Of a stretch of DNA of 64,000 nt, positions 1-62,245 are shown piece by piece. Both the position numbers and the translations under genes were made by a program. A model generated the notes under the pieces. The model was not told where the DNA came from. It searched no databases and saw nothing but the letters and a program-made list of their open reading frames with translations. Positions within the stretch are counted from its first letter, which is position 1. Every line of letters begins with the position of its first letter. Source of the DNA: Ginglymostoma cirratum (Eukaryota); assembly GCA_024137785.1 (NCBI GenBank), contig JAHRHZ010000087.1, positions 17,037,205-17,101,204 of the forward strand, in the 5' to 3' direction.

Positions 1-88
1 GAAGGGTCTAGGCCCGAAAAGTCAAGCTTTCCTGCTCCTATGATGCTGCTTGGCCTGCAGTGTTCATCCAGCTCCACACCTTGTTATC
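1..88 (+). mobile_element. PLE-terminus mini-element, family A, cut by the window edge; partial hammerhead motif
   Basis: GAAGGGTCTAGGCCCGAAAAGTC followed by the same ~65 nt as the copies at 4340, 15923 and 49899. Confidence 0.75.
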
Positions 89-1879: not shown

Positions 1880-3380
1880 CTCAACACTTCACTTGATTTT
1901 TTTTTTGCCCTCCGATTGTCCAGTCCCTTCCCACTTACATCTATAATTCTCTGATGCTTAATGTCAGTTTCAGAATTTCCAGTTTGCAGGCTCCGGCTGC
2001 CTCTTCTTCACCAGGGACATGCAATCTCTTTACACTTCCATCCCTCATCAGGATGGTGTCAGGGCTGTCTGCTTCTTCCAGGAAAGAAGGCCTGAACTGT
2101 CCCCATCCACTATCACCCTCCTCTGCCTTGCCGAGTTCATCGCCACTTTGAACAACTTCTCTTTTAACTCCTGTCACATTTTTCAGGTCAAAGGTGTGGC
2201 CATGGGTAGCTTCATGGGCCCCAGTTATGTCTGTCTCTTTGTGGAGTACATGGAATATACTTCTTCTAGTCCTACTCCAGCCACCAATCACAACTCTTTC
2301 TCCAGTATATCAATGACATCATTGTTATTGCTTCCCCATCTAACCCGGAATTGGAAAAGTTTATCTATTTTGCTTCCAATTTCCATCCTGCTGTAACTTT
2401 CACCTGATTCATCTCTGACTCTGCCCATCCCTTCTTCATCACTTGTTTCCATTTCTGTGTTAGGCTGGACACCAATATCCACTACAAACCCACCTACTCC
2501 CACAGTTGCCTGAACTATACATCCTCACACCCAATTTCCTGTAAAGACTCCATTGCATTTTCCTGGTTTCTCCATTTCTGTCACATCTGTTCTGATGATG
2601 TCACCTTCCACAGGAGGGTCCACTATTTTACACAACTGAGGATTCCAGGCCTCTGTGGTTGACAAGGCCCTTAGCCTTGTCCAAACCATTTCCCGCAAAT
2701 CCGCCTTCATGCCTTCATATCCACCCCCACCACAACAGCAATAGGGTCTCCCTGGTGCTCACTTACCACCCCACCAGAACATGCATCCAAGGGACCAAAA
2801 GCTGCTATTACCACTACCTGTAGAAACACATTCCCCTCCATTCCCTTGTCAGCAATCCCTCTGGGACACGCTGGTCCACTCCTCCTCCACTCCCAATGCC
2901 ACTCCACAGCCCCACAGCACCTTCCCATGCAATTGCAGAAGGTGTAACACCTGCCCATCTTCTCTCCTCACTATCCAAAGCCCCAGTCACATTCCAGGTG
3001 AAACACTGACTTATACGCATTTCACTCAACCTAATCCGTTGTATTTGTCACTCATAATGTGGTCTCCTCCACATTGGGAGTTGAAATGCAGACTGGGCGA
3101 CTATTTTGCAGAACACCTACATTCTGTCTGCTTCTAGTTGCCTGTCACTTCAACAGTCCACCATGTTCCCTGGCCAATATTTCTATCTCTGGTCTGTTTT
3201 AATGCTCCAGCGAGGCTCAGCACAAGCCAGAAGACCAACATCTCGTTTTCTGCTTGGGAAAACTGCAGCCTGCAAAACTCAAAATCAAGTTCAATAATTT
3301 TAGAGCCTAAGCACCTTCTCCTATATCCTTCACCCACCCCACATTCCAGGCCCTGTCATGACATCAACCTCCATGTATAT
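1880..3380 (+). mobile_element. Penelope-like element (Neptune-type), degenerate RT + Cys linker + GIY-YIG
   Basis: ORF 2019-2396 QSLYTSIPHQDG...QVKGVAMGSFMGPSYVCLF; ORF 2781-3137 TFPCNCRRCNTC...KCRLGDYFAEHL; many frameshifts. Confidence 0.9.
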
Positions 3381-4029: not shown

Positions 4030-5995
4030 AAAAACTGAAAGAACTGCAGATGCTGTAAATCAGAAACAAAAACAGAAGTTGCTGGAAAAGCTCAGCCGGT
4101 CTGGCAGCATCTGTGGAGAGAAATCAGAGTTCATGTTTCAGGTCCAGTGACACTTCTTGAGAACTGATGGTCGCTAGGAAAATGTTGTTTTATATACAGA
4201 AGATAGGGTGAGGGGAGGGTGTAAGAAGTAAACAATAGGTGGAGATACAGCCTAAAGAGAGAGAAGAACAGTTGGACAAAGCAGTGAATAATGATCTGGC
4301 TAGGAGAGTGTTTGACTGTTATTGGAATAGCTGTCATTTCTGAAGAAGGGTCTAGGCCCGATACGTCAGCCTTCCTGCTCCTCTGATGCTGCTTGGCCTG
4401 CTGTGTTCATCCAGTTCTACACAGTGTTATCTCAGCTGTTATTGGAGACTGTTAGTGGCTAACAACAGGTTGTGTGTAATGGCAGACTATGTGTTAACAA
4501 GGCCTGGTGTATGGGATTGGGACATAGGATATGGAAGAATTCAGACCATAAAATTATTGAACTCAATCTTGAGCCCAGAGGGCTGCAGAGTCCCCAGGCA
4601 GCAAGCCTGAGACAGTGATGTTGGGCAGGGAACAGAGTGGTTTGTTAAAGTAGCAGGCAATTGGAAGCTCAGGATCATTTTTGTGGGCAGAACATAGGTG
4701 TTCTGCAAAGTGGTCACCCGGTCTACGCTTTGTTCCCCCAATGTAGAGGAGACCACATTGTGAGCAGCAAGTGCAGTAGACTAGATTGTGACAAATGCAG
4801 GTAAAGTGCTGCTTCATCTGGAAGACTAGTTTGGGACCTTGGATACGGGGGAGGGAGGTGGTACACCTTTGGTGTTTGCAGGGGGAGGTGCCATGGGGCT
4901 GTTGGGGGGTTGTTGGGACTGAAGGAAAAGTGAACCAGGGTGTCCTGGAGGGAACGGTCCCTGCAGAGACCATGCAATGGAGGGGAGTGGAATGTGTGTC
5001 TGATGGTGGCATCTTGCTGGAGGTGGTGGAAATGGAGTCTGATGATCTTCTGAATGTGGATGCTGGTGGGATGGTAGGTAAGGTCAAGGGGAACCCTATC
5101 ACTGTTGCGGGAGGAAAGAGTGGGGGTGCGGGCAGAAATGCAGGAGTTGGGTCAGACCTGGTTGAGGGCCCTATCGACAACGGTGCTGGGGATTCCTCGG
5201 TTGAGGAAGAAAGTGGTTATTTCAGAGGCTCCTTTGTCGAACTTGGTCTCATTGGAACAGATGTAATGGAGACACAGGAGCTGTGAGAATGGAATAGAGT
5301 CTTCACAGGAAGCAGGGTACGAGGAGATATATTTCAGGTAGCTTTGGGATTTGGTGGGTTTGTAGTAGATATTAATGGCCTGTTTATCCCCAGAAATGGA
5401 AACAGAGATGCTGAGGAAGGGAAGGGAGGAGTCAGGGATAGACCAGGTGAAAGTGAGGGCAGGGTGGAAATTGGAAGTGAAATCAATGAACTTTTCCAAT
5501 TCCCAACAAGAGAGGGAAGCAGCACCGATGATAGCATCAATATATCGGAGAGAGATTTGTGGTTGCAGACCGGAATAGGACTGGAATAAGACTTCCACAG
5601 ACCCCACGAAGAGAAAGACATAACTGGGGCCCAGGCGGGTACCCACGGCCACCCCTCTCACCTGAAGAAAGCCAGAAGAGTTAAAAGAGAAATTGTTCAG
5701 GATGAGGACGAGATTGGCCAAGCAAAGGAGGGTGGTGGTGAGTGGGGACGGTTCAGTCCTTTGCTCCAGGAAGAAGTGGAGAGCCCTGAGACCATCCTGG
5801 TTGAGGATGGACGTGTAAAGGGATTGCATGTCCGTGGCAAGTAGGAGGCTGCTGGAGGCTGCAAGCTGGAAGTTCTGAAACTGGCGTAAAGCGTCAGAGG
5901 AATTGCAGATGTAAGTGGTCAGGGTCTGGACCAGGGGAGAAAAGACTGAGTAAAAGTAGGAAGAGATGAGTTCTGTGGGCCAGAAGTAGGCGGAT
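4030..5995 (-). mobile_element. Penelope-like element (Neptune-type), 5'-truncated, with family B 3' pseudo-LTR at ~4030-4170
   Basis: ORF 5152-5829 QSLYTSILNQDG, GVAVGTRLGPSY, LRYID; ORF 4563-5180 HFTCICHNLVYCTCCSQCGLLYIGGTKRRPGDHFAEH (GIY-YIG); terminus matches the family B mini-elements. Confidence 0.92.
4339..4433 (+). mobile_element. Family A hammerhead mini-element nested in the PLE 3' region
   Basis: CTGAAGAAGGGTCTAGGCCCGATACGTC (GAAA mutated to GATA); TSD-like AGCTGTCATT 4329-4338 / AGCTGTTATT 4434-4443. Confidence 0.8.
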
Positions 5996-6019
5996 AGCAG
6001 ATTGACTGCCTGTCAGAAA

Positions 6020-9459: not shown

Positions 9460-9585
9460 TAAAAAGTGGCAGACTGATGCGAAATTAAAACAGAAAGTGC
9501 TGGAGAAAAGCAACAAGTCTGGCGGCATCTGTGGGGACAGAGACAGTTAATATTTTGAGTCCGATGACTCTTCTTCCGAACTGTG
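9460..9585 (-). mobile_element. PLE terminus fragment related to family B, decayed hammerhead
   Basis: Reverse complement reads CAGTTCGGAAGAAGAGTCATCGGACTCAAAATATTAACT...CAGATGCCGCCAGACTTG. Confidence 0.65.
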
Positions 9586-11351
9586 GATTAGTGTAATTGG
9601 ATTCCAGGAGAGATGGGGCATCAGCAGGCTGGAAAGAAATCGAGACTATGACAAGTGTAGCATTTTAATATTTCACCCATCAACAAAAATAAATTCAAGC
9701 TAGGTGGGCTGAAGCAAATATTTGGGTAGTTGCAGGGGATTGGTTCATTGTCCATATGTGGCAGTGTGTGGATTGGTGAGTGGAGACAGGGGTAAGGCCA
9801 GAACAAAGAATGATTCTCGGACCAATCAAAGTACTCTTAGCCCTCTAGGAATCATCCTGAAAAGAAAAACTTACATTGTCTATGTCTGGTCACTACTGCC
9901 TGCTGTCAGGTTTCCCTGGTGGGTTCAGAACTTTGCATACCTTCCCTATGAAGTTCTAGATAAAGTTGCATTGTTGCACTAACGACATTATCAGGCCATG
10001 ACTTTTGCCTTTCAATTAGGCTGTGACAACTTTGTAGCAGAAACTGAAGTCAACCTGAAAGTCATCAAAGTGGAACTGACACCAGGAAACAGGGCAATAA
10101 TCACCCAATTTTAGCGTTTCCAATACACCATTTCCACCCAGTGGATTAAAATTGATCTGAATTGAAAATAAAATATTGCAATGTATAAAACTGCCCGCCA
10201 CATTTTTTTTATCATGATTGCTGAAAACTAATTTCACTCTTACACTACCACTGTATATAATAGAATTCAGTCAGTCTTCCGAAGATATGCTCCATGAGAT
10301 TGATTCAGATGATTGCTGAGAGCATAAAAAGAGAGAAATTGTACTCCAGAATAACATCATCTCTCTTTTGCAATAGTTATGACCTGATTTCAATGTTGAA
10401 AACTGCACAGCATTCATTTACCCATTTGGCTAAATTAGTCTAACTTCACCCTAAGTGCTGAAATAAAACAAACAGCCTTTCGTTATGGACCAATTTTATC
10501 ATCCAAACCAACAGTTTAAAATGCTAGAAAAGACACTTTCATTAAGGCTTCTCAGAAACTTATTAGGATGAGCTGCAACAAGGCTAGAGGAGGAATGCTG
10601 GTCTGAAGTTAATGGTTTTGACCTTTTAACTCTTCTTATTGAAACCATTCATTTGAGGCAAAGTTAATTAACTGAAATAGATTAATCTAGTGAATAATTA
10701 TTTCTTGAGGCTTCATAGAATGCAACCATGTGTGTTATCAAAACCAGGAATGTAACCAAGATTGTAAAAATGTTTAATATCTTGTGCCTATTTTGCTTCA
10801 GCTAATGCAAAGCAGAAGTAGAGACCATTTGGATCCTTGTGCCTATTCAATCATTCAGTAAGCTATGGCTGATCGGTTTGTGTTTCATATTCTACATTTC
10901 CACCTATTACCACGCCCATTTCTGGTAACCTTTGATCCTCTTGCCTAAAAAGAATCTGTCCACCTCCACTTAAAAATATTCAATGATCCCACCTTCACCA
11001 CCTTCTGAGGCTGGATGTTTTGAAGTTATGCAACTCTCCAAGAGAAAAAAAATTATCCTCATCTCTACTTTGAAAGGGTGACACCTAATTCTCAGACAAT
11101 GCTCGTAACTTCTGGACTCACCCACAATAGGAACCATTTTTTCCATTTCCATTTTGTCAACACCATTCAGGATCTTACACAATAAAGTGAAGTCACCCCT
11201 CACTCTTATAAAATCCAGGGAAAGCAATCCTAACCTGCCCAACCTATCCTCATAAAACAATCTGCCAATTCCATGTGTCAATCTCAGAGACAGCTCTGAT
11301 CCACCTTTAATATATTTAAATCCTTCCTTAGATAAGGAGACCAAAAGTTTT

Positions 11352-11897: not shown

Positions 11898-13671
11898 AAG
11901 ACCAAATTTATATATGGATTCAAGATGTGGTCTCACAAATGCCCTGTACAATGAAAGAATGAAATCTTTTATGGACAACTCATCTCATAAGAAAGGATAA
12001 CTTTCCATCAGCCTCCTTAATACACTGTACCTGTGCACTAAGTTTTTATGCCTCATGCACTAGAACACCTAGATCCCTCTGCATCTCAGATTTCTGCACT
12101 GATTATTCATTTAAGAATTTGTCCTGTTTTTATTCTTTCTGCCAAAGTGAACAACTTCACATTTTCCCGCATAAAACTCCAACTGCCAGATTTTTGCTGA
12201 CTCATTCAACCTATCTTTATCCATCTACAACTTTCCTATGCCTTCTTCACAGCATGCTTTCCTATCTATCTTTGGATCATCTGCAAACGTAACTATTATG
12301 CCTTTGCTCCCTTCACTTAAGTCATTGATTTATATTGTTAAAAGGTGAGGCTCCAGCACAGCCCTCTGTTGGGGCTCTACTTTTAATGTGCTGCAAATCA
12401 GAAAAAGACTCATTTATGCATATCCTGTGCTTTGCCAGCTAATCAATCTTGTCACCACTTTGATATGTAATTGCACATTACTCATACAATAAGTTCCTAC
12501 TTGGCATAATAACCTTTTATGTGGCACTTTGTCAAATACCAGCTGGAAATTCAGCTACAGTACATCAACAGGCTCTCCTTCAGATGACATTCATTAAATA
12601 AACCCCAATAATTTGGTCAAATAAGAACCCCTTTCACAAAGCCATGTTAATTGTTCCTGATTAGCTTATATTTTTCTAAGTGCCAAACTATAACCTCCTT
12701 AATGATCAATTTTAATATGTTATCCGTGACAGATATCAAACTAACTGGCCTATAGTTTCCTGTTTTTATGCCTCCCCTCCTTCTTGTCTGGAGAAGTTAC
12801 CTTTGTTAATTTCCAATCTGATGGAACCTTTCCGGAATCTAATGTATTTTGGAAAATTAACATCAATGGATCCATTCCTCAATAGCTACCCCTTTTGAGA
12901 TCCATGGATGAAATCTATCAGGACACATGAACGTGTCAGCCTGCAGCCCCATCAGTTTGCAATGTGCCCCTTCCCTAGTGATTGTAATTTCAGCAGATTC
13001 CTCTCTCCCTTCCATCTCCTGATTTACAGATATTATTGGTATGTTTTGAATCCTGTTTTGCAAAAACAGAAATAAAATATTTGTTAATCTCTTCCACCAT
13101 TTCCTTACTTTCTGCTATTAACTCCCCATTATAATTTTCTAGAGGAAAAATAGTTTGTTTACTCTTTTCCTTTTAAATAGCCTATAGAAACTATGACTAT
13201 TCATTTTTACTTCACTACCTAAGTTCCTTCCATACTTTATTTTCTTGCTCCTTATTAACCTCTTAGTCATTCTTTGCCATTCTTTACATTCTGTCCAACC
13301 ATCTCATCTGCCATTCACCTTTGTGCAATTATATGCTTTTTCGTTAAGTTGGATGCTTTCCCTTTTTTTTCTAGTCAGCCATGGATGCTAGGTCCTCCCT
13401 TTAGAAATGTTTTTAATTTGTAGTAAGAATATACTTATTCTCAGTATTCTTAAATATGTTCTGAAATGTTTGCCACAGCATGTCCGTTGAAATATCCATT
13501 TGCCTAAATCCCTGTTCACTTCAACTAGCATGACTTTCATTGGCCTTATTTAAGTTTAGTCGTAGTTGCACTTTTCTCCCTATGAATCTGGATACAAACT
13601 TCAAACATATTTTGGTCGCTGCTACTTAAGAGTGCCTTTGCTCTAAAGTCATTAGTTAACATTAACATTAA

Positions 13672-13712
13672 CAATAGACAATAGACAATAGACAATAGAC
13701 AATAGACAATAG
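13672..13712 (-). repeat. (TCTATTG)n heptamer tail of CR1, ~6 units
   Basis: Perfect CAATAGA tandem on the + strand at the element 3' end. Confidence 0.95.
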
Positions 13713-14495
13713 GTGCAGGAGTAGGCCATTCGGCCCTTTGATCCAGCACCACCATTCATTAAGATCATGGCTGATCATCCACATCAGTATCCTGTCCTGC
13801 CTTATCCCCATAACCCTTGATTCCATTATCTATAAGAGCTCTATCCATCTCTTTCTTGAAAGTATCCAGAGACTTGGCTTCCACTGCCTTCTGGGGCAGA
13901 GCATTCCATATATCCACCACTCTCTGGGTGAAGAAGTTTTTCCTCAACTCTGTTCTAAATGGCCTACCCCTTATTTTTAAACTGTGTCCTCTGGTTCTGG
14001 ACTCACCCATCGGCAGAAACATGCTCCCTGCCTCCAGAGTGTCCAATCCCTTAATGATCTTATACGTCTCAATCAGATCCCCTCTCATCCTTCTAAACTC
14101 AAGTGTATACAAGCCCAGTCACTCCAATCTTTCAACATATGATAGTCCTGCCATTCTGGGAATTAACCTCGTGAACCTACGCTGCACTCCCTCAATAGCA
14201 AGAATGTCCTTCCTCAAATTTGGAGACCAAAACTGCACACAATACTCCAGGTGCGGTCTCACCAGGGCCCTGTACAGCTGCAGAAGGACCTCTTTGCTCC
14301 TATACTCAATTCCTCTTGTTATGAAGGCCAGCATGCCATTAGCTTTCTTCACTGCCTGCTGTACCTGCATGCTTGCTTTCAATGACTGTTGTACAAGAAC
14401 ACGTAGATCTCATTGTACTTCCCCTTTACCTAACTTGACTCCATTTAGATAGTAATCTGCCTTCCTGTTCTTGCCACCAAAGTGGATAACCTCAC
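13672..14495 (-). mobile_element. Young CR1 (HER1-like) 3' fragment
   Basis: ORFs 14119-14382 and 13765-14112 share one frame split by a single stop: LQLYRALVRPHLEYCVQFWSP...RGDLIETYKI...FFTQRVVDIWNALP; simple-repeat tail. Confidence 0.95.
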
Positions 14496-15804: not shown

Positions 15805-15915
15805 AAGGACTCTTGTGGCATACTGGTAATGTCCTACTCTCTGAACCAGGAGTGCAAATTGCAATACCATCTAATTTGGAAGCATGTCATAACATACCTG
15901 AGCATGTTGATTATA
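15805..15915 (+). mobile_element. Short tRNA-like SINE, decayed
   Basis: Similar to the reverse complement of 44760-44875 (TGGT..TGTCC.TAC...CTG.ACCA.GAG...TGT.ATAAC...GTTGATTA). Confidence 0.45.
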
Positions 15916-15922
15916 AATACTG

Positions 15923-16057
15923 AGATAACAAGGTGTAGAGCTGGATGAACACAGCAGGCCAAGCAGCATCAGAGGAGCAGGAAGGTTGACGTTTTGGGCC
16001 TAGACCCTTACACCTTGTTATCTCAGATTCTCCAGCATCTGCAGTACCTACTATCTC
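15923..16057 (+). mobile_element. Family A palindromic mini-element with most of the sense arm missing; 15-bp TSD
   Basis: TGATTATAAATACTG at 15908-15922 and 16058-16072; antisense arm ...GACGTTTTGGGCCTAGACCCTT joined to ACACCTTGTTATCTC plus tail. Confidence 0.85.
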
Positions 16058-16539
16058 TGATTATAAATACTGTTTTTTCATTAGGTAAAAAACAAGCTAT
16101 CCAATGTAGATAATATAAGACAGTTAAAAACCCAAAATTCTAACCCAAAAGCATTCAGAATCGGCTTCCTTATGTTCCACATCACTGTAAGAGCCCTGCC
16201 ACCCATCCAGCCCTCAAGAACTACTTGCAAAAAACCCAAGGGAACCCTATACCCACCAATACTACTGCTAACAGCCTGCAGCATGGCACCAGACCTGGCT
16301 GACAGCCATTATGGCAGTCATAGGGTTCAGTATCCATATCAACCTCCCAATCCCACCTGTGCAGAAGTTGGGGAGACAGCATGACATTCCCAGTACACTC
16401 CTACAAGCACTGTTAAATCAAAATGTAGAATAGTTTAATTATTTATATTTGGACACACTTAAACTGCAATGTTCCAAAAACTTTCCAATTATGAAAGATG
16501 ATGGATACCAGTAAAAAAAATCTATTTAAAATAGAATGT

Positions 16540-22240: not shown

Positions 22241-22539
22241 CTAGTCAAAGCATCTGTCATTTCAGCTCCATGAACAGATAAACTGGTAGAATAGTCAGAG
22301 AGATCATGTCGTGTTATTGAAGGTCTGTCTGATCCTTTGACCTTTACAATCAGGCTGAATGCTCTGCCCTCAGACAATCTGGCACAGAAGCTTCTCAAAG
22401 AAGTCATTGTCATGCCTCAATAAAGAGCTCAAAACTATGTGACCTTATCAGAAGCATGGAGGACAGCCAAAGTGTTTATGTTACATTGGGAGTAGACATT
22501 TTGCAGGAAGCTACAATGAAAGGCTTGCATCCCAAAAAA

Positions 22540-22765
22540 GAGATAGTAAGAACTGCCGATGCTGGAGTCAGAGATAACACAGTGTGGAGCTGGAGGAGCA
22601 CAGCAGGCCAGGCAGCATCAGAAGAGCAGGGAAGTTGACGTTTCAGGTTGAGACCATTCTTCAGAAAATGAGCTTCTGAAGAAGGGTCCCAAACCGAAAC
22701 ATCAACTTTCCTGCTCATCTGATGCTTCCTGGCCGGCTGTGTCCCTTCAGCTCCACACTTTGTTA
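22540..22765 (-). mobile_element. Complete head-to-head palindromic hammerhead mini-element (family A variant), 15-bp TSD
   Basis: TTGCATCCCAAAAAA at 22525-22539 and 22766-22780; ~95-bp inverted arms meeting at CTTCAGAA...TTCTGAAGAAGGG; ~30-nt tail on the left arm only. Confidence 0.9.
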
Positions 22766-22809
22766 TTGCATCCCAAAAAAACCTCACAGCCCAGGCACAT
22801 GCAGATTTC

Positions 22810-24470
22810 GTCACAGTTATCTCTTAAATCCTGCAGACAGAGCTTGCTCAGGGAAAGCAATCTTGAGATGTTTCTTCAAGCACTCTTTCTGAAGAATAAA
22901 TAACTCAGACAGAAAACAAACCCAGTAAAACATCCAAATACACATATTGGTCCAATTCGTTCTGTATACTTCAGAACAGAACTCCGGTATGACCAGTACA
23001 TTCATTTCCAAGTATTACTTTTTTTTTGCTGATTTTCTTCTCTCTGGGAAGTTTCACCCTAAACTCAACAAGAATGTCAAGGAGGAAGCTTATTCTTAAC
23101 AAGTTTTCCTGCAACTCAATTTGTTCTTCCCTCCAATTGAACCAGAAAAAATCAAATACGTCTCCAAACCAGTCACTGTTCAAAACAGTCTAGTTGAGGT
23201 CAACAGTAAAGCAAGGAGTTATGACCAGTCATGTGATTCACAGGAAGTCTTGTTAAAAAGTAATCTCTGATTTCCTCAGTGAACTTTGAACCGTCTCTTT
23301 TAAATAAACTACCCTACAAAATTTAAAATGATTTTATTTTCCACAATCCTTCAAAAACTCCAAACAATATTACATATAAAATGTCCTTGTAACAATACAG
23401 TCTTGTGTTCGGCTACAGTTACAGAATTGAGGAAGGGTCCAGTTCTGAGGAAGCATCACTGGACCCGAAACGTTAACTCTGATTTCTCTTCACAGATGCT
23501 GCCAGACCTGCTGAACTTTTCCAGCAACTTCTGTTTTTGTTCCTGATTTACAGCACCCACAGTTCTTTTGGTTGTCAAAAGATAAGCATTACTACTGAAG
23601 TTTGGCATAAACTTTTGATAGAAATCACACATCCCCCAAAACTTCATAATTTCTAGCTTAGTTTTCAAGGTAGGGGATTCCACCAAGTCTATATTTTTGT
23701 CTTTCTTGGCAGAAAGAATCATTGTTGAACTTTTTGCCTTAGATAGGTTACCTGTCCTTTAGTAAATCCTTTTTTGACAAGGTTTACTTAAAAAAAAGTC
23801 AGCTGATTCTACTTATACATGTTTTGGTCTTATGGATCCCTACATCCTTGCCAAAGGAATTTCATGGACCATCCTTAATATGTCTTGACAATTTTTGGGA
23901 AGCACCCTTCATCTATTCTTCCTCCACAAGTCCATAAGGAGGTCTTCACTTCCTTATCGGAAACATTTTTACTACAGTTGCATTCTAGAACACCTTCTTG
24001 TCAACATCAATTTGAGCCAATTGTGCTACTCTATTTAAAACAGGCTTAACTCGCTGAGACTCGATAAAAGAAGACTCATTGGATGTTTCCTTCAGAATGT
24101 TCAAAGCCCAAAATAAAATAGCTGATAACCAAAGATCGGGCTGTGGTGTGAATGTGATCTCTGTTTAGCCATTGTTGGGTCACTACACATGAAGGAAATG
24201 TTCCTGAGTCTTTTTCTTTAACTGCTCTATTCTCTTTGACTTGTCTTGACTTTTCTGTAATGACTGGAGAAGCTAGTACATTCACTCTGGCCCAATTATT
24301 CCCAGGAGTAGGTCAAATCTGTCCACAGGCAATCTATGGACAAACTCTACAGTAGTTTCCAGATATTAGGTTATATTCTAGGTGAACCTGATAAAGAGGA
24401 ATATGTTCCCCACCCATACCATTTGCTAAAATATTGGAATTCATTATTCCTTTTCCCAGTCCTTCTGAGG
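22810..24470 (-). mobile_element. Decayed Gmr1-like Gypsy LTR retrotransposon (protease, integrase start, RT/RNaseH linker, putative LTR)
   Basis: NGMGGEHIPLYQVHLEYNLISG and DLLLG (protease end); SPVITEK...FPSCVVT; ILRMVHEIPL...VGIHKTK (integrase zinc region); KFWGMCDFYQKFMPNFS (RT linker). Confidence 0.75.
23428..23572 (+). mobile_element. Family B hammerhead mini-element inserted in the Gypsy element
   Basis: AGTT-CTGAGGA-AGCATCACTGGACCC-GAAACGTT-AACT at 23441-23478, preceded by a partial duplicate TGAGGAAGGGTCC; 3' tail present. Confidence 0.85.
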
Positions 24471-24560
24471 CCCCAAACACAAGTCTTTGTCCAGTACATT
24501 GATGATGTCGGTGCTGCTTCCTGATCTCGTCTGGACTTTGATCAGTCTTATTTCCAATCT

Positions 24561-24880
24561 GGGGCAGCACAGTGGCTCAGTGGTTAAGACTGCTGCCTCA
24601 CAGCACCAGGAACCCAGGTTCGTAACTACCCTCGGGTGACTGTCTGTGTGGAGTTTGCACATTCTGTCCATGTCTGCGTGGGTTTCCTCCGGGTGCTCCG
24701 GTTTCCTCCCCCAGCCCAAAGATTTGCAGGTTCAGCAGATTGGCCATGCTAAATTGCCCATCATGTTTGGGAATGTGTAGATTAGGTGGGTTACAGGGAA
24801 ATGGGTCTGGGTGGGATGCTCTGAGGGTTGGTGTGGACCTGTTGGGCCAAAGGGCCTGTTTCCATTCTATAGGGATTTTA
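24561..24880 (+). mobile_element. HE1-type tRNA-derived V-SINE
   Basis: A box TGGCTCAGTGG, B box GGTTCG, core GTGTGGAGTTTGCACATTCT...GGGTGCTCCGGTTTCCTCCC, tail GGGCCTGTTTCC...TAGGGATT. Confidence 0.92.
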
Positions 24881-25939
24881 TGAATTTCCATCCTTCTCTC
24901 ACTTTCAGCTAGGCCATCTCTGATTCTTCCCTTCTTTTCCTTGACTTCACTTTCTATTTCTGGGGATAGTATGTCCACCAATATCCATTACTAGCCCACT
25001 GACTCCCACAGTTACCTCACACACTGCCTCCTATAAAGATCCCATTCCATTATCCCATTTGTCCATTTCTGTCACATCTGTGCCGACAATGCAACTTCCA
25101 CCAATGTGACTCTGGCACGTCCTCCTTTTCCCTCAACCAAGTATCCCCCATCCTCCACTGTGATTGGACACAGTAGAAGGCCCTATCAATGTATCTGATG
25201 CACTTCTGCCCTCACTCTTTCACCTCCCTCCCAAATAAATCTCCTCTTTATCCTCACTTCCCACTTCACCTGTTTCCCCATTCAAAGGATTATCTTCCTG
25301 CCACTTCCACCATGTCCAGCAGGATACCAACACCAAGCACATCTTTCTCTCCCCTCCACTGTCAGTATTCTGCAGAGACTATTTTCTTGGTGACACTCCG
25401 GTCCACTCCTCCATTACTCCTAAAACTTCTTTACTCCCCCATTGCACCTTCCCATGCATTCACAGAAGGTGTAACACTTGCCCACGCATCTCCTTCCTCC
25501 TCACTATCCAAGGCCCTTCACAACCTTTCAGATGAAGCAGCATTTAACTTGTCCTTATCACAATCTAGCCTACCGTATTTGCTACTCAAAACTCTATCAC
25601 CTTTACACTGCTAAGACTCAATGCAGAATGGTGACTGCTTTGCGGAAGACCTCTGCTCTGTCCATAGGAATGACTCCTCTATTCTAGTTGCTTGTCATTT
25701 CAAAAAAAAATCTTGTTACCTTACTAACATTTCCATTCTTGGTCTGCTACAGTATTTCAATGAAACTCAATGTAAGCTGGAGGAACAAAACCTTATTTTC
25801 CACTTAGGCATTATACAGCCTCCAGTACTCAATATTGAGTTCCACAACTTCAGAGTTTGACCACTGCACTCCATGTTTCTTAGATTCTCCACTTCTCAAA
25901 GCTATGCCTTATTTGTTTCCTGACTTACCACCATCATCA

Positions 25940-26167
25940 GTGGTGGGCGTGTGGAATGCCAGCAGTGGTAGTGGACTCAGATGCTTTAGAGACTTTTAAA
26001 CGACTCTTGGATAGGCACACGGAAGGTAGTAAAATGTAGGGAATGCAGGGTAGATTGACCTTAGTAGGATAATAGATCGGCACAACATCGTGGGCTGAAG
26101 GGCCTGTACTGTGGTGTACTGTTCTATGTTCTATGTTCTATGTTCTATGTTCTATGTTCTATGTTCT
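25940..26167 (+). mobile_element. CR1 3' end with (ATGTTCT)n tail
   Basis: GTGTGGAATGCC...GGGCTGAAGGGCCTGTACTGTG followed by ~6 ATGTTCT units (~26119-26167). Confidence 0.9.
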
Positions 26168-26554
26168 ACCACTGCCTTTGTCTCTTGCTCTGGATTCTCA
26201 ATCATTTCCACTTTCTCCTCTTCCTCCTCTGTCTACAGCATTAAAACTACCACTTCCAGCTCTTTATCTTTCTGAAAAAGAGTAATGATGGAATGAAAAT
26301 ATTAACTCTTTTACTCTCACCAAAAATGCTGCCAGATCTGTTAGTTTCTTCAGCACTTTCAGTTTTTATTGCATAATTAATGAAGCAAGTTTGGCAAGAC
26401 AGAGCAACAGAATACAACAGGTCTCAAGGTGAAAAACCTTAAAAAAAATGATGCCATGTGAAAGTTTCAGCACTTGGTGTCTTTCCTTCTATCCTTCTCT
26501 AATTAACATTACTCCATTTTCATCTGAATAATGTCAACAGTGATGTCTTACTGA

Positions 26555-27500
26555 AGCCTCCAGTTTTGTTATGACTGAGATGGGAGAAGTGCACCTTCTT
26601 TTCTAGTCCTAATACTTTGAGACACAACATAAATTTAAAAGTTTTATTCAGTTTCCGATATGGCCCGACACAGACTTCCCATGTTGTAAACGTAGATCCA
26701 TTGACTGGGTTTCATTAATAAACACAAAAATATACATGTATTGTAAATCAAAACTTACTTCACAACTTACTCTTTAATATATAAAAAAAATGTTTAACGT
26801 ACTCACGCAGTCTTTGTAGAGATTCACTTAAAAAAAGCATTTTTGGCGAATAAGTCTAATTCTTGAAGACAAATAGGATAAGGTTTAACAAGTTCAGTTG
26901 GTTGTTGGACTGATGTTCTGCTACATAACTATGGATGTTGCTGAAAGCATGTGATTGACATTGGGACCTATGCCAACGTTGGTTAGAAAATATTGACAAT
27001 CCGTTTCTCAGGCAAAAACTGAAAGAACTGCGGAGGCTGTAACTCTGAAACAAAAACAGAAATTGCTGGAAAACCTCAGCAGGTCTGGCTGGATCTGTGG
27101 AGAGAAATCAAAGTTAACTTTGTCACTTAACCCGAAATGTCCACTCTGATTTCTCTTCACAGATGCTGCCAGACCTGCTGAGCTTTTCCAAAAACTTCTG
27201 TTTTTGTTTCTTTCTCAAGCAGTTTTTCGATGAGAGCAGCTGAGCAAGGTCTCCCGGTAATTCAGAAAACCTGCCACAAGGATTTTTTTTCCAGAAAAAC
27301 AAGAGAACTGAGTTTGCAAGCTTCTTCCTTTCAGCAGGCTTCTCCTCAACTATGTCAAATGATATCCAAAGCAGAAACCAGAGCCATCTGACTGTCATAA
27401 ACCCATGCAAATGGTCTCCAATAAAAAAGCAGTTATCACAGGACATACAACTATTGAGAACTACCTTGTTAAAAAAGTTCTAATGTACCTGCATTGACTT
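26555..27500 (-). mobile_element. Putative Gypsy-type LTR with PBS-like start
   Basis: Minus strand reads ...GTCATAACA then AAACTGGAGGCTTC (LTR end followed by TGG); composition resembles the other putative LTRs. Confidence 0.45.
27012..27210 (-). mobile_element. Head-to-head palindromic mini-element, family B, hammerhead core largely deleted
   Basis: Inverted arms AAACAGAAATTGCTGGAAAACCTCAGCAGGTCTGG / CCAGACCTGCTGAGCTTTTCCAAAAACTTCTGTTT; TSD-like TTTCTCAGGCA / TTTCTCAAGCA; tail on the left arm only. Confidence 0.85.
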
Positions 27501-28629: not shown

Positions 28630-29838
28630 GAGCCCTAACAAAATTGGAGTCAATGGGAATCATGGAAAAAGTCTCTTTGCTGGTTGGATTCATACTTAGC
28701 ACAAAGGAAGATGGTTGTGGTTATCTCGAGTCCAGGAAATCTCTGTAAGAGCTCCTCAGGTTTGTGCCCTAGGCCCAACCACCTTTAGTTGCTTTATCAA
28801 TGGCCTTCCCTCATTCGGATGTTCAGAAGTGGAAATGATTGCACAATAATCAGCATCATTCATGACTCTTCAGATATTGAAGCAGTCCCTGCCAAAATGC
28901 AACCACAATAGAAATTGCTGGAAAAACTCAGCAGGTCTGGCAGCATCTGTAGAGAGAAAGCAGGGTTAACATTTTGGGTTTGGTCACCCTTCTTCTGAAC
29001 TATGTCGAAATACAACAAGGCCTGGACAATATCCCAAATGGACAATGTCCAGACTTGGGCTGATAAATGGCAAGTAACATTCATATCACACATATGCTAG
29101 GCAACAATAATTTCCAATAACAGACAATCTAATCATTGCACCTTTACATTCAATAGTGTTTCTATCATTGTATCCCACTCTACCACATCCTGATGGTTAC
29201 CATTGACCAGAAATTGAATTGGACTCACCATAAAAATACAATGGAGACAGGAGCAGGTCAGAGGCTATGGATACTGCAACAAGTAACTCATCTTCTAACC
29301 CCCTAAAGCCTGTCTACCATCAACAAGGCTCAAGTCAGGAGTGCGATGGAATACTCCCTATCTACATGAAGAGTTCAGCCCTAACAACACTCAAACATCT
29401 CAAGAAACCCAGCTGGAAAAAAGTAGCCCCCTTGATTGGCACCACATCCACAAACATCACTCCCTCTACCGTGAACATTCAGTACCAGCAGCACGTACCA
29501 TCAATTAGATGCACTACAGAAATTCAGCCAGGATCCTGAGATGGTACCTTCCAACTCAAGGCCAGCACAATCTAGAAGGACAAGGGCAGCAAATACATGG
29601 AGACACCAACACCTGCAATTTTCCCTCCAAGCCACTGACCATCCTGACTTGGAAATGTATTGCCATTGCTTCTGTGTTGCTGGGTCAAAATCATGGAATT
29701 TCCTCCCTAACGGCATTGTGTATCTACCCTTGGCAACAGTTCAAGAAGGCATCTCACCACCACCTTCTCAAGGGGAATTAGGGATGGGCAATAAATCCCA
29801 ACCAGCGATGCCCACATTCCACAAGTAAATAAAAAAAT
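28630..29838 (+). mobile_element. CR1/L2-group LINE, degenerate RT 3' part and tail
   Basis: APQVCALGPTTFSCFINGLP (cf. VPQGSVLGPT.F.CFINDLP), WADKWQVTF; tail GGGATGGGCAATAAA...CCAGCGATGCCCACATTCC plus A-run. Confidence 0.85.
28905..29000 (-). mobile_element. Family B PLE-terminus mini-element nested in the LINE
   Basis: Reverse complement AGTTCAGAAGAAGGGTGACCAAACCCAAAATGTTAACC...CAGATGCTGCCAGACCTGCTGAG. Confidence 0.8.
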
Positions 29839-30755: not shown

Positions 30756-30840
30756 AATAGCATTTATCATCATCACCTGATGTCACAAAGTGCATTCCAG
30801 CCATTGAAGTGTTGCTTGAAGTGCATTCACCATTGTTATG

Positions 30841-31074
30841 TCATAGAATCACAGAATCCCTACAGTGTAGAAACAGGCCCTTCGGCCCAACAAGTCCACA
30901 CTGACCTTCAGAGCATCCCGCCCAGATCCAGCCCCCTATAACCCACCTAATCTACACTATGGGCAATTTAGCATGGCCAATCCACCTAGCCTGTGCGTCT
31001 TTGGACTGTCGGAGGAAACTGGAGCACCTGGAGGAAACCCAAACAGACACGAGGAGAAAGTGCAAACTCCACAC
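30841..31074 (-). mobile_element. HE1-type SINE, 5'-truncated
   Basis: Reverse complement of the HE1 core and tail (GAATCCCTACAGTGTAGAAACAGGCCC...GTGCAAACTCCACAC). Confidence 0.9.
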
Positions 31075-31249
31075 ATTTTGAAATGTACAAAACATGGTAG
31101 TCAATTTGCAAATGGCAAACCCCCACAAACAGTATTGTGATAAAGACTAGATCATCTGTTTTTTGTGACATAGATTGAAAGGTAAATATTGGCCAGGATG
31201 CCAAAGAGAGTTCCACGTTTCTTCTTCAAAATAGTATCATGGAATCTGC

Positions 31250-33499: not shown

Positions 33500-33797
33500 A
33501 CAGAAATCACAGAAACCCTGTCGTGTGGAAGCAGGCCATTCAGCCCATTGAGTGTACACCAACTCTCTGAAGAGCAACCCACCCAGACTCACCTCCCGTC
33601 CTATCCCTGCATTTCCTATGGCCAATACCACCTAACCTGCACATCTTTGGACCGTGGGAGAAAACCAAAGCACCCAGAGGAGATCCACACAGGCACAGGG
33701 AGAATGTGTAAACGCCACACAAACAGTTACCCAAGGCTAGAATTGAACCTGGCTCCCGAGCCCTGTGAGACAGCAGTGCTAACCACTAAGCCACCCT
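33500..33797 (-). mobile_element. HE1-type SINE
   Basis: Reverse complement of HE1 ending GCAGTGCTAACCACTAAGCCACCC. Confidence 0.9.
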
Positions 33798-34189
33798 GAA
33801 CAGGCAAATATGAAAGTATGATACACGTTCCCATCTTCACCCAATCATCCACATTTCCAGCAAAGGTTACTAGAACTTAGTCAGATACCAAGAATTTTTT
33901 TTTTCCTTCCTAACCTTAGGAAATTGAAGCTAACTGTAGCATCACCTGCATATTGAAATTGGAATCTATATTTTTTTGCTGGTGGAAAAGTTTTTCCTCA
34001 AGCGTAGGCAGGAAGATACAAACTCATCATCAGCACAGTCCACAGATCCACCAGCAGACTCAGAGATCCAGACAGAACCTAAAAACAAAAATGGAACAAC
34101 AACAAGTACCACAGCAACAAGTGACATGGGAATGGCACTCCCTGGTGAAGAAGCATCAACTCGGTGAATAGCCAATGACAATGCACATT

Positions 34190-36100
34190 AAGAAAACAGC
34201 ATGGTTTAAGGATTAAGCATGCAATGTATATGTGCAGGCTAATGAGAACAGTTAATGCATGAGATGAGTCATGTTTATATTGTGTAATTTTTTCTGCATA
34301 TGTCTAGGAGTTTTAAAAGATGATTTGAATTTTAACTAGTAGAGCAACATGTTGATCATTTATATTTGCTTACTTGGAATTAGAATTTACTTATTTGTAA
34401 GGAGTAGATATTCTTGTCTAGTGTTTAAATCTGATCAGTGTTTTTGGTTACCTTGATTCCATCAGAGAGATAAATCAAGGACTTTGCACATTTGGATGAA
34501 ATCATTAACCATTGCCATGACTTTGGGAGTTGTAGGTCTTGAAAATCAATGCACTTTCCCAAATGGATTGAAACAATAGACTAGGGGCTCATCTGGGATC
34601 ATTTTGAAGCAGGCACATTGAGAATTTGGGAATGGTATTAATAAGTGATAACGACAGAGAAAGCAGGTTCATTTCTGAAAATAAGAAACTGAAAATTACT
34701 ATCCTTCAGGTGACAGAATTGTCCTTGACAGTTTTAAGTGAACTTGTAAAAAGCCAGATAATTGATTTGGCATGTAGGTTGGGTGGCTTGGCCTACTAAA
34801 GCTAAAATAACAAATATAATTGAAGCACCAACGTAGCACTTGGGTTTAGCAGAAATAAAAGAGTGACCAGGTATTCCAAATACTGAAAAACCGGAATGAG
34901 GTTATGGTTGAAGTAGCTTATGCATAAGCAAATTGAAGCAACTTGAAATTTTAAAGAAAGATAAATTTTCACAGGGAAGGAAAAGACAAAGAAATGTAAT
35001 GATAAAGATGGGAAATGGGAATGAGAAAACTAGAATTAGAATTGCAGAGGGAAATAGGAGAGAAAGGTATAGATTTTAAGCTAAAAATGTTGCAGTTAAA
35101 ATAGGAGATACCAGATGCTGATGCTTTGACATGGGGAATCCAAGAAATAATCTAAAAACTATTAGCAGCGGCATGGTGGTTCAGTAGCTAACACTGCTGC
35201 CTCACTGCACCAAGCAACCAGGTTCAATTCCAACTTTGGGCAACTGTCTGTGTGGAGTTTGCACATTCTCCCTGTGTCTGTGTAGGTTTCTTCCAAGTGT
35301 TCCAGTTTCCTTCCACAGTCCAAAGATGTGCAGGTTACATGGATTGGCCATGCTAAATTGCCTATAGTGTCCAGGGATGTGTAGATTAGCCTTTGGAGGG
35401 GTGGGAGTGTGAGTCTGGATGGGATGCTCTTTGGAAAGTCAGTGTTGGGTTGAATGGCCTGTTTCCACAAGGTAGGGCTTCTATTCATTCTAAAAATTTT
35501 GTTTTAAGTTTGTGCAAAAAGCCCTGCCAAAATTCAAGAAATGGAAGGTGGAGGCATTCTTTAAGTATTTTGAGAAAATAGCAAGATGATTGAATTGACC
35601 AAAGGGAATCTAGACATTGCCCATGCATAGTAAGCAGACAGGTCAAACACAGAAAAGTATCTTGGGATTATGATACTGTTAAAAAAAAAACAGGTATTGG
35701 CTATGTATGAGTTACTGCCTGAGGCATATGGGCAAAGATCTCAGAATTTAAGGAAACAGTCTAGGCAAACCTATACAATAGTCGCCTGGGGCACGGTGAC
35801 CCTCAGGTTAAACCACCACCAGTTTTCTCTCTCTCTCTTTCATGAGAGTAAAGCTTTATGGTCCGGTAGCACTATGGTGACCTTAAAAAAGACTTAGAAC
35901 TTTATTTTATTTCAGCCCAGCATGAGTCCCAAGGGATGCCTATTGCTGATACTGGGTAAGTTGCTGCCAAAGGGTGGTGGACGGGGATCCACACTTCTAT
36001 TAATCCCAAATGTCACATGACCTTTCCCAAAAGGCACTTGATTGCAATTATGTCTTTCAAAGGACTACCTTGCCTCTTCAAAGAACTCTACAAAGTTTAG
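34190..36100 (+). mobile_element. Decayed Gmr1-like Gypsy element: putative LTR, tRNA-Pro PBS and SCAN-like gag
   Basis: TAGGGGCTCATCTGGGAT (34582-34599) matches the tRNA-Pro PBS TGGGGGCTCGTCCGGGAT at 15/18; gag ALPKFKKWKVEAFFKYFEKIA and KKQVLAMYELLPEAYGQRSQNLRK. Confidence 0.8.
35164..35490 (+). mobile_element. HE1-type SINE inserted in Gypsy gag
   Basis: A box, B box GGTTCAATTCC, V-core and HE1 tail. Confidence 0.9.
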
Positions 36101-37159: not shown

Positions 37160-37795
37160 ATTTTTATTCTTTAATCATTCACAGGATGAGGATATCACTG
37201 GCAGGCAGCATTTATTGCCCATCCCTAATTGCCCAGAGGGCAGTTAAGAATCAACCACATTGCTGTGTGTCTGGAGTCACATGTAGGCCAGACCAGTAAG
37301 GATGGCAGTTTCCTTTCCTAAAGGACATTAGTGAACCAGATAGGTTTCTCCCAATAATCGGCAATGGATTTATGGTCATCAGGGGTGGCACAGTGGTTCA
37401 GTGGTTAGCACAGCTACCTCACAGCACCAGGGACCTGGGTTCAATTCCAACCTTGGGCAACTGTCTGTGTAGAGTTTGCACATTCTCCCCATGTCTGCGT
37501 TGGTTTGCTCCAGTTTCCTCCCACAGTCCAAAGATGTGCAGGCTAGATGGATTGGCTATGCTATAGTGCCCAGGGATGTGTGGGTTAGACATGGGGAATG
37601 GGCCCAGGTGGGATGCTCTTTGGAGAGGTGGTGGTGACTCGTTGGGCCAAATGGCCTGTTTCCATACTAAAGGGATTCTATGATTAGACTCTTAAGTCTA
37701 GATATTCATTGATTTGGGATTTGAACCTGCATCCCCAGAACATTATCTGGGTCTCTGGATTAATAATCCACTGATAATACCACTAGGCCATCAGC
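37160..37795 (-). mobile_element. tRNA-derived SINE with LINE-shared tail, split by HE1
   Basis: Matches 43500-43850, 48003-48375 and 59015-59350 (ATTTATTGCCCATCCCTAATTGCCC...TAATACCACTAGGCCATC). Confidence 0.85.
37382..37684 (+). mobile_element. HE1-type SINE
   Basis: GGGGTGGCACAGTGGTTCAGTGGTTAGCAC...GGGTTCAATTCC...GGGATTCTATGAT. Confidence 0.92.
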
Positions 37796-42450: not shown

Positions 42451-42980
42451 GCGATCACATACACCATTGCTCGCCAGTTCATTATTTTTCATCCTCTGCA
42501 ACAGAACATCAGGATATCCCCTTGGTCAAAATCCAGAAATAAAAGACACCACTTTAAAAAACCATAATAACTTTATCCAACAATACTTCTTTTAATACAT
42601 ACAAAACTGAACTATTCATCCTTATGCATAGAATATTATAGGGTTCTGAGTGATGTGAGCTTTGGGAGATTTATTTGGCAAGGCTAATCTCCATGTTGGG
42701 AGTGAGTTGTTCTAGGAATGACGTATGGCAAGATGGGGCCAGAATTGATTGTGATGATTGTCAAAGAGCATGGGGTAAATAGTTAATGAGGCAAGTTTGA
42801 ACAGTTAGGGCGAGAATGCTTGCTAGGCCTTACAACAGAAATCCTCCAAAAGATTTAACAGAACTCAATCTTAGCCAAAGAAACTAAGTTCCAGCACATC
42901 TTGTCTGTCATGTGAGTGACTGTCTCTGGTCTATTCCTCTTAAGCAGTGTTAATCTAGTGGCTACAACATGCCTAGTGCA

Positions 42981-43018
42981 AGTTCTGAGGAAGGGTCATC
43001 GGACCCGAAACGTTAACT
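42981..43018 (+). ncRNA. Minimal type I hammerhead ribozyme motif, best-preserved family B copy
   Basis: AGTT|CTGAGGA|A|GGGTC-ATCG-GACCC|GAAA|CG|TT|AACT: 4-bp stem I, perfect 5-bp stem II, palindromic AACGTT in place of stem III. Confidence 0.7.
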
Positions 43019-43076
43019 CTTGTTTTTTTCCTTCAGGTGCTGCCAGACCTGCTGAGCTTTTCCAGCAACTTTGTTT
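42981..43076 (+). mobile_element. Family B mini-element, single arm
   Basis: Matches 23441-23540; TSD-like ATGCCTAGTGCAAG (42969-42982) / ATGACTAGGGCAAG (43077-43090), 12/14. Confidence 0.85.
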
Positions 43077-43499
43077 ATGACTAGGGCAAGGCTACTGAAT
43101 TTCACTGGGGGAAACTGAAGATGGTCTTGCAGGATGTTGTCATGCAGCTTTAAGGATTTACAGGCCTAACTGCCGACTGCAACACCACAGCATCTGAAGT
43201 AGCAGTGTAGGCTGGCTAGTTGAGAAACACCAGATGAAACAATGGCTGCATAGCAGGGTTCAGAATACTGTCCTCAAAAGAGAACAGTCATTTCTTTAAA
43301 CATTGAGTCACTGCCACAGCTCTGTACAGGTACCAGTCCACAGAAGCACAGATTAATGGAGTGTGAAGTGAAAGTGAACATTTAAAAATTTAAATAGAAA
43401 CAGAACATTTGAACACTTTCTTATATCCACCTTCAGCTTCCTGTGCAGTTATGTCACTTTAAATCCTACTATTTTAATTTGTCATTTAACAATGGTGAA

Positions 43500-43850
43500 T
43501 TTTTTTTTCCTTTTATTCATTCAGGAGGAAGGCATCGCTGGCCAGGTAGCATTTATTGCCCAGAGGGCAGTTAAGAATCAACCACATTCCTGTGGGTCTG
43601 GAGTCACATGTAGGCCAGACCAGGCACGGACAGCAGATTTCCTTCCCGAAAGGACATTAGTGAACCAGACAGGTTTTTCCCAACAATTGGCATTGGATTC
43701 ATAGTCATTATTAGACTCTTAAGTCCAGATATTAATTGAATTCAAATTCCACTGTCTGTCATGGTGGGATTTGAACCTGGGTCCCCAGAACATTATCTAG
43801 GTTGCTGCGTTAACAGTCCAGTGATAATACCACTAGGCCATCGCCTTCTC
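43500..43850 (-). mobile_element. tRNA-derived SINE with LINE-shared tail
   Basis: Minus head GGCGATGGCCTAGTGGTATTATCACTGG...GGTTCAAATCCC; same family as 37160, 48003 and 59015. Confidence 0.88.
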
Positions 43851-48002: not shown

Positions 48003-48375
48003 GGGGAGGCAATGGTGCTGTGGTAATGTCAGGCGACTAGTAATCCAGAACCCAAGACTAATGCTGTGGGGATCGGAGTTTAAATTTCACCATGGCAAAT
48101 GGTGAATCTTGAACTCACTAAAAATCTGCTATGAAAACTGACCCTAATACTAATTATGTAATCATTGTCAATTCTTGTAAGATTCCATCTGGTTAACTAA
48201 TGTCCTTTCAGGAAAGAAATCTGCCATCTTTACTAGGCCAGCGTCTGATTCCAGATCCACAGCAATGTAGTTGATCCTTAAATGCCCTGTGAAATAGCCA
48301 AGCAGATCAAGAAGCAATGAGGGATGGGCAATACTTACTGGCCGAGCCAGCGATGCCCACATGACACAAACAAAT
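48003..48375 (+). mobile_element. tRNA-derived SINE with LINE-shared tail
   Basis: GGGGAGGCAATGGTGCTGTGGTAATGTC...GGGATGGGCAATA...GCCAGCGATGCCCACAT. Confidence 0.85.
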
Positions 48376-49481: not shown

Positions 49482-49881
49482 NNNNNNNNNNNNNNNNNNN
49501 NNNNNNNNNNNNNNNNNNNNNNNNNNNNNNNNNNNNNNNNNNNNNNNNNNNNNNNNNNNNNNNNNNNNNNNNNNNNNNNNNNNNNNNNNNNNNNNNNNNN
49601 NNNNNNNNNNNNNNNNNNNNNNNNNNNNNNNNNNNNNNNNNNNNNNNNNNNNNNNNNNNNNNNNNNNNNNNNNNNNNNNNNNNNNNNNNNNNNNNNNNNN
49701 NNNNNNNNNNNNNNNNNNNNNNNNNNNNNNNNNNNNNNNNNNNNNNNNNNNNNNNNNNNNNNNNNNNNNNNNNNNNNNNNNNNNNNNNNNNNNNNNNNNN
49801 NNNNNNNNNNNNNNNNNNNNNNNNNNNNNNNNNNNNNNNNNNNNNNNNNNNNNNNNNNNNNNNNNNNNNNNNNNNNNNNNN
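49482..49881. other. Assembly gap (400 N)
   Basis: Run of N. Confidence 1.
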
Positions 49882-49898
49882 ACCCTTCATCAGAAAAT

Positions 49899-49926
49899 CT
49901 GATGAAGGGTCTAGGCCCGAAACGTC
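49899..49926 (+). ncRNA. Minimal hammerhead ribozyme motif, intact family A core
   Basis: CTGATGA|A|GGGTCTAGGCCC|GAAA|CG|TC: canonical core, GUC cleavage triplet, ACGT palindrome; stem I weak in this copy. Confidence 0.65.
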
Positions 49927-62139: not shown

Positions 62140-62245
62140 AATCAGAGTCTGCTAATGAAAATTTATTAACCTGAAACCATAACTGTTTGTCTCTCTACAA
62201 ATGCTATCTGAATTTCTGAGTATTGCCTACACTTATTGCTTTTAA
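62140..62245 (+). mobile_element. Very decayed PLE terminus
   Basis: CTAATGAA...CCTGAAACCATAACTG...CTCTCTACAAATGCT...CTGAGTATT. Confidence 0.4.

Follow-up and report, generated by a model that had tools for sequence, protein, structure and literature searches.

How does an insertion without coding sequence come to consist of two head-to-head copies of the terminus of a Penelope-like element (PLE), and why does the window (the whole 64-kb stretch of DNA analyzed here) hold five such inverted insertions? The insertion at 22540-22765 is 226 bp long and lies between identical 15-bp TSDs (22525-22539 and 22766-22780, + strand). Its left arm (22571-22670, - strand) is an inverted copy of a terminus subfamily that we call A2; it begins 5-6 nt upstream of C3 and is the only arm to carry the 31-nt PLE tail, which the alignment places at 22540-22570 (-) and which is unpaired in the predicted fold. 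Three unassigned bases (22671-22673) make up the head-to-head junction in the sequence, followed in the alignment by a sense A2 arm without a tail (22674-22765, +). A 4-bp palindrome lies at the apex. Both arms retain the letters of a minimal hammerhead, at 22664-22637 (-) and 22676-22703 (+), with 11/11 core letters and three of four helix II pairs in each case.

The two arms (22574-22666 and 22674-22766) are 86% complementary, and none of 200 shuffled sequences folded as well as the predicted hairpin (-142.5 kcal/mol, z -15.8). In this predicted fold each hammerhead core is paired with its own antisense copy within the stem, with an unpaired probability of at most 0.01 at all 11 positions checked, and opening the core would cost 20 kcal/mol.

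The remaining four inverted insertions share this layout to different extents. The insertion at 15923 (15908-16072) is an A1 copy of 135 bp with exact 15-bp TSDs on both sides. With arm positions numbered so that +1 is the initial C of the hammerhead CUGA box, its untailed, inverted arm spans +7 to +95 and its tailed right arm only +80 to +130; the latter consists of the final ~16 nt of body sequence and the tail, forming a 17-bp stem without a complete hammerhead. The 196-bp hairpin at 27012 (27004-27221) is of a third type, B, and has an 11-bp TSD with one mismatch and no CUGA box. Its left arm terminates in a 12-bp perfect palindrome (27110-27121) centred on the hammerhead cleavage site, which could derive from fold-back of cleaved RNA or from a 1-nt deletion. 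The A1 insertion at 49298 (49284-50001) has an exact 12-bp TSD, an intact minimal hammerhead (49899-49926) and 400 N inside it (49482-49881). The flanks of this gap overlap by ~57 nt, with the apex differing by an 8-nt indel and one substitution, and the insertion may be a single hairpin that was broken in assembly. At 49433-49435, both arms of its first junction have a G before the putative +1 A, where the left arm of 22540 and the single-arm copy at 4337 have a C; this G may be untemplated, having been copied from the RNA cap. The fifth insertion, at 57447 (57434-57669), is an A2 hairpin of 212 bp with a 12-bp TSD containing two mismatches.

No two of these five insertions have the same junction. 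The start positions of the tailed and untailed arms are +80 and +7 (15923), -5 and -2 (22540), +24 to +31 and +10 (27012, tailed on the left), -6 and -6 or -1 (49298), and +8 to +10 and +1 (57447, tailed on the left), respectively. Both arms of 15923 and 27012 lack the CUGA box, as does the left arm of 57447, the right arm of which has G12 changed; the box is present in both orientations only at 22540 and 49298. All five insertions have a TSD, varying in length from 11 to 15 bp. Among 992 random boundary pairs, none matched the scores of the exact TSDs; the weaker scores of 27012 and 57447 were reached by 0.6% and 3.8%, respectively.

A profile search recovered 13 clear terminus loci in the window: the five inverted insertions, five single-arm copies, two copies linked to an ORF (4030 and, probably, 26270) and an A1 arm without a tail that is truncated by the edge of the window (1-88, +; profile match and alignment). 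The same profiles had no matches in the reversed window, and the A and B profiles match each other's loci. Weak matches at 62168-62243 (E 6.5e-4; an old, B-like terminus remnant) and at 7808, 61458 and 61989 (E>0.1) were excluded from the counts. The termini fall into three subfamilies, represented among the inverted insertions by 15923 and 49298 (A1), 22540 and 57447 (A2) and 27012 (B). Arms are 91-97% identical within A1 and 73-85% identical between A1 and A2. The A2 arms of 22540 and 57447, two insertions that are laid out alike, are 84-89% identical and related in a star-like manner, with 18 of 21 variable columns private to one arm and one of 21, at a likely CpG, separating left from right arms; with four arms only, this comparison of left- and right-arm lineages is compatible with a master hairpin too.

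Of the single-arm copies, only the one at 4337 (4316-4446, +; exact 11-bp TSD) is of type A1. It sits, oppositely oriented, within the 3' UTR of the B-type PLE at 4030-6000, which shows that A1 was active after that B insertion. The four B copies comprise an old one of about 73% identity (9481-9586, -) and a tailed one (23440-23573, +), for neither of which a TSD was found, one with a weak 9-bp TSD containing one mismatch (28900; 28895-29016, -) and one with a 14-bp TSD containing two mismatches and an intact minimal hammerhead at 42985-43014 (42981; 42969-43090, +). Just 5' of the tailed copy, at 23427-23440, lies an extra 12-nt piece of the 5' part of the hammerhead, resembling a tiny partial tandem.

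Core letters were tabulated for 12 arms, and the window contains two intact minimal hammerhead matches (42985 and 49899) against a mean of 0.1 per resampled window. A degenerate terminus motif matched 14 times in the window, compared with no matches in 100 shuffles, and had none in GTDB genome contigs. Rfam at E<=1 returned no hammerhead and six miRNA-type matches, all under the gathering score, which we read as generic hairpin hits; a bacterial promoter scan, judged irrelevant here, was empty. Together the hairpins occupy 1.7% of the called bases, at five inverted insertions per 64 kb.

The link between these termini and PLEs comes from the element at 4030-6000 (-), a 5'-truncated and decayed copy that retains RT, a GIY-YIG-like motif, a 3' UTR, a TATA box (4196), an Inr-like A (4165) and a tailed B terminus. 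Its body, read from 6000 to 4030, matches a PLE-like protein (tblastn, E 4.6e-84), and the B terminus lies at its 3' end. This identifies B as a PLE 3' end (pLTR), and A1 and A2 are presumably PLE 3' ends as well, by their homology to B; an ORF-linked A-type copy is absent from the window. An older remnant at 24886-26379 (+) has a probable B-like 3' end (26242-26379), which is parted from the ORF by another repeat and presumably belongs to it. A second decayed PLE, at 1910-3305, is 69% identical to 4606-5939 on the opposite strand and has no recognizable A or B terminus.

Matches to the PLE ORF by tblastn occur only at 1968-2617, 4674-6000 and 24886-25532. Among matches to the RT that bear a species name, the best come from two rays, Mobula hypostoma and Hypanus sabinus (56-58% identity); closer ones, reaching 74%, bear gene ids only. 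The ray matches point to a likely elasmobranch host. The RT also aligns, over 79% of the query, with two ray gene models, P0015 and P0017 (named chitinase domain-containing protein 1 and divergent protein kinase domain 1C), into which retrotransposon sequence has probably been drawn. A CX2-5CxxC linker, of the kind described between RT and EN in the Neptune/Nematis clades (Craig et al. 2021, bioRxiv 10.1101/2021.04.23.441226), was found in the ORF remnant at 2745-3134 and in homologue P0003, with no match in the decayed 4566-5216 frame. This type of linker points to a possible placement of the window ORFs toward Neptune/Nematis. Pfam searches of eight window frames yielded sub-threshold matches to RVT_1 in two and to a C1-like domain in one, and nothing else.

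Other repeats are interspersed with the PLE sequences. A ~300-bp SINE-like repeat is present in at least seven copies that are 69-81% identical (24557-24886, 30833-31075, 33504-33798, 35168-35492, 37378-37685, 54937-55236 and 60749-60963), and an unclassified repeat of 200-350 bp in four (37161-37381, 43501-43849, 48005-48291 and 59026-59350). LINE-like repeats lie at 13708-14334 and 56091-57440. The 7-bp tandem tails at 13671-13712 and 26120-26168, the latter of which interrupts a PLE 3' UTR, are probably LINE 3' ends.

The earlier note, based on the letters of this stretch, had described each of the five insertions as two inverted pieces of one terminus, with no coding sequence and with its own TSD of 11-15 bp (exact at 15923, 22540 and 49298). 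The inverted pieces and the TSDs were confirmed at all five sites, and every tblastn match to the PLE ORF lies outside the insertions; in place of a single common terminus there are three subfamilies. Its assignment of the pieces to a PLE pLTR end with a minimal hammerhead is upheld, as is their insertion by PLE machinery, which the variable length of the TSDs supports. That the whole insertion is a ~200-bp hairpin applies to three of the five, but not to 15923 (135 bp, 17-bp stem) or 49298 (400 N). A hammerhead at the apex that would give a sense ribozyme in either direction was not confirmed for the set: a complete one is absent from 15923 and 27012, damaged in 57447 and base-paired in 22540. 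The five single-arm copies and the ORF-linked ends with the same termini were left out of that description.

Comparing all of these copies reveals regular ends. The 3' ends fall at two places, about +91 to +105 for untailed arms and +125 to +132 for tailed ones. Exactly one tail of 31-33 nt is present in each of the five inverted insertions (chance 0.03 if arms were independent at p=0.5), and in all five the untailed arm has a common second stop, which is also where 4/5 single-arm copies end. The insertion ends are asymmetric, having a one-sided tail and sharing a motif of only ~6 bp. Both 3' end sites (22540, 22571, 27014 and 27211) finish in a repeated motif, TATCTC in the A types and a GTTTTT-like run in B, suggesting that the RT start sites are defined by sequence. 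At the other end, the five single-arm copies start at -3, -9, -5, -4 and -4, all within a 12-nt window upstream of the hammerhead; the start at 4337 is bounded by its TSD at -13 at most, and the A reference extends only to -7.

In the ORF-linked B copy, this 5' boundary corresponds to the A in TCAGTT, which lies 31 nt below a TATATAAAA TATA box. A spacing of 31 nt agrees with the usual TATA-Inr spacing. We lean toward the 5' wall being the transcription start, a reading of the TATA box and Inr that draws on this one ORF-linked B copy and the general consensus. Because the same four bases form hammerhead helix I, the putative start site and the 5' edge of the ribozyme coincide. A splice acceptor was considered separately as the 5' boundary, by comparison with the D. 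virilis Penelope intron that ends at helix I (PMC4209133), and is disfavored because single-arm copies keep the AG and share no upstream exon.

We consider it probable, on balance, that the hairpins are non-coding insertion products of autonomous RT + GIY-YIG PLEs, each formed anew and probably dead on arrival; the general proposition that they are de novo PLE products is very likely. The PLE RNA would begin at the Inr-like site, 4-5 nt upstream of the hammerhead, and by analogy with in vitro work on another PLE the RT may have two internal initiation sites, which in these termini would lie at about +95 and +130. Priming within the 5' pLTR would yield run-off cDNAs of 95-135 nt, and one such cDNA would give a single-arm copy. 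If the endonuclease nicks both target strands 11-15 bp apart, each strand could prime at one start site of the same RNA; head-to-head joining of the cDNAs at their 3' ends, trimmed to varying degrees, would produce a one-tailed hairpin with its apex at the RNA 5' end. Such twin priming on a single RNA is plausible, and we would put it just short of an even call. The distal, tailed cDNA would be expected to trail on the shared RNA and so be more truncated; the tailed arm is more 5'-truncated in three of the five insertions (15923, 27012 and 57447), 3 nt longer in 22540, and tied or undecidable at 49298. The hammerhead would be a passenger adjoining the start site, which does not define the unit and, judging from the modeled stem, could not fold in the hairpin RNA. 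The units have neither a TATA box nor sequence beyond the tail and are therefore probably dead ends, although short copies might not be silent given the internal promoter of D. virilis Penelope (PMC2377424).

More tentatively, we propose that the commonest PLE integration product in this genome may be a 'double strong-stop' insertion, in which a PLE dimer would prime both nicked strands, using two fixed RT start sites close to the capped 5' end of a single RNA, and the run-off cDNAs would be joined head to head. If true, this rule would explain the inverted ends and the one-sided tail of PLEs together and could be tested on very many copies (about 78 per Mb if the window is typical), and the genome would be seeded with ~90-bp dsRNA stems directed against the PLE itself.

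A de novo palindrome might also form if a single cDNA, or an antisense template (Arkhipova et al.), snapped back and copied itself. Fold-back of this kind has been proposed for PLE junction palindromes (PMC3846280), and the 12-bp perfect palindrome at the end of the 27012 left arm and the 4-bp one at the 22540 apex are in keeping with it. However, self-priming does not readily explain why the untailed arm has a constant second stop, seen in 5/5 insertions and 4/5 single-arm copies, or why the tailed arm is the short one at 15923. We regard this origin as unlikely.

The earlier note had suggested a high-copy, non-autonomous, ribozyme-processed (retrozyme-like) family mobilised by the PLE RT/GIY-YIG. 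In such a self-propagating family, hairpin units would go through transcription, hammerhead processing and re-insertion in trans, and the junction differences would stem from later deletions at the palindrome centre. Palindrome centres are unstable, and the shared layout of 22540 and 57447 with 84-89% arm identity, the density of five per 64 kb and the retention of 11/11 core letters in both 22540 arms all fit such a family. Retrozymes, moreover, derive from pLTRs (bioRxiv 2026.07.22.740005). Against it, the three subfamilies would require at least three independent origins, and the five junctions are never shared. The core is paired (at most 0.01 unpaired, 20 kcal/mol to open) or, in 2/5 insertions, missing. 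Self-cleavage predicts 5' starts at +29 (A) or +31 (B), and at most 1/15 arms (27012 left) is compatible with this. Head-to-tail units are absent, none of the six tandem arrays in the window containing the unit, and the units include neither the TATA box nor the sequence downstream of the tail. Left and right arms are grouped by only one of 21 variable columns, at the likely CpG. We therefore consider this proposal quite improbable.

Ordinary random 5' truncation with 5' inversion is a further alternative, in which the pile-up at the hammerhead would be due to chance or to RT stalling at structured RNA. PLE insertions are often inverted and heavily 5'-truncated (Craig et al. 2021; PMC8969392), most genomic minimal hammerheads are single truncated copies (PMC4209133), and long truncated copies are present in the window. 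Nevertheless, all five short single-arm starts fall inside 12 nt (P<=0.027). Under simulated exponential truncation, the probability of at least 5/7 starts in any 12-nt window was 0.027 for a mean length of 30 nt, 0.010 for 50, 0.0014 for 100, 0.00015 for 200 and <1e-5 for 500. None of 15 arms starts upstream of -13, a result that is significant only for means of at least 100 nt (P 0.64 at 30 nt and 0.16 at 50 nt). In the window we found neither starts in the interval from -13 to the ORF-linked copies nor, at E<0.01, short 3'-only terminus fragments outside the catalogued loci. An RT stalled by the ribozyme would presumably halt 3' of it rather than just past its 5' end. Random truncation thus has little probability, and the earlier view that these copies reflect more than chance is sustained by their common 5' boundary. 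A MITE or fold-back DNA transposon, suggested by short, non-coding, largely palindromic insertions with TSDs, is very improbable and largely refuted by TSDs that vary from 11 to 15 bp, asymmetric ends with a one-sided tail and a shared motif of ~6 bp, single-arm copies with TSDs, and the identity of the sequence as a PLE terminus.

ORF-less miniatures in which two 3' ends and a single 5' end are fixed offer a clean genomic readout of PLE end formation. The hairpins can also break short-read assemblies, as with the gap at 49482 inside one of them, can mimic miRNA precursors, and could provide dsRNA for silencing or A-to-I editing.

L1 elements prime at the poly(A) end and at a random internal site, whereas both priming sites are fixed here and the arms often overlap fully. 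In L1 twin priming (Ostertag and Kazazian 2001, as described in PMC2246262), a single RNA is primed from either side of the break, which gives an inverted insert, and 15923, with its ~16-nt overlap, resembles that layout. Closer to the present case is Poseidon PAc of Anolis (Frangieh et al., PMC11167929), the protein of which extends both target strands, with RT starting internally at two sites that bracket the tail; product length follows the RNA 5' end, and ribozyme cleavage is dispensable. The two 3' end sites bracketing the tail are a likeness to PAc, and the hairpins connect its internal initiation in vitro to genomic insertions. PAc differs in belonging to the Poseidon clade and in having an ORF that begins inside the hammerhead, and hairpin products are not reported in the portions of that account available to us.

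Non-LTR retrozymes, reported in one chondrichthyan (bioRxiv 10.64898/2026.07.22.740005), are built of tandem units, arranged head to tail and each containing a complete ribozyme, and form circular RNAs (PMC7229834; bioRxiv 10.64898/2026.07.22.740005). The insertions described here are like them in being non-coding and pLTR-related, with a type I hammerhead, a size of 135-230 bp and larger TSDs. Unlike retrozymes as described in these sources, they are head-to-head and dispersed, without tandem units or cleavage-type ends, and the ribozyme is often absent or buried. In Schistosoma, dispersed single and opposite-strand minimal hammerheads derive from truncated PLEs and are active only as dimers (Cervera and De la Pena 2014, PMC4209133; PMC6765202 agrees). 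The opposite-strand pairs reported there are 100-700 bp apart, whereas those in the window abut or are trimmed at the junction.

The closest relatives are the inverted-pLTR insertions of EN+ PLEs, which share the head-to-head palindromic junction, the tail at one end, the TSD, and TATA + Inr and hammerhead in the pLTR. In Adineta Pen2a/Pen3a, head-to-head inverted junctions with palindromes are abundant; the tail is 31 bp long and one-sided, TSDs measure 8-10 bp, and the pLTR contains TATA + Inr (PMC3846280). This layout has been presented as general for PLEs, with the origin of the tandem and inverted ends and of the one-sided tail called unresolved (Craig et al. 2021, bioRxiv 10.1101/2021.04.23.441226; repeated in PMC8969392). 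In the insertions described there, the inverted pLTR caps an ORF- or gene-bearing insert and TSDs are 8-10 bp, whereas here there are arms only, TSDs of 11-15 bp and a high density, and both arms begin at or below the putative start site. A literature search that covered few subscription journals found no account of ORF-less PLE hairpins in sharks, nor of PLE twin priming; chondrichthyan retrozyme families in the supplements of bioRxiv 2026.07.22.740005 may bear on novelty. The hairpins are miniature members of the PLE inverted-insertion class. Their architecture is already known, and the miniature, start-site-bounded form, at five per 64 kb and from 13 loci in one window, appears to be an undescribed variant of it.
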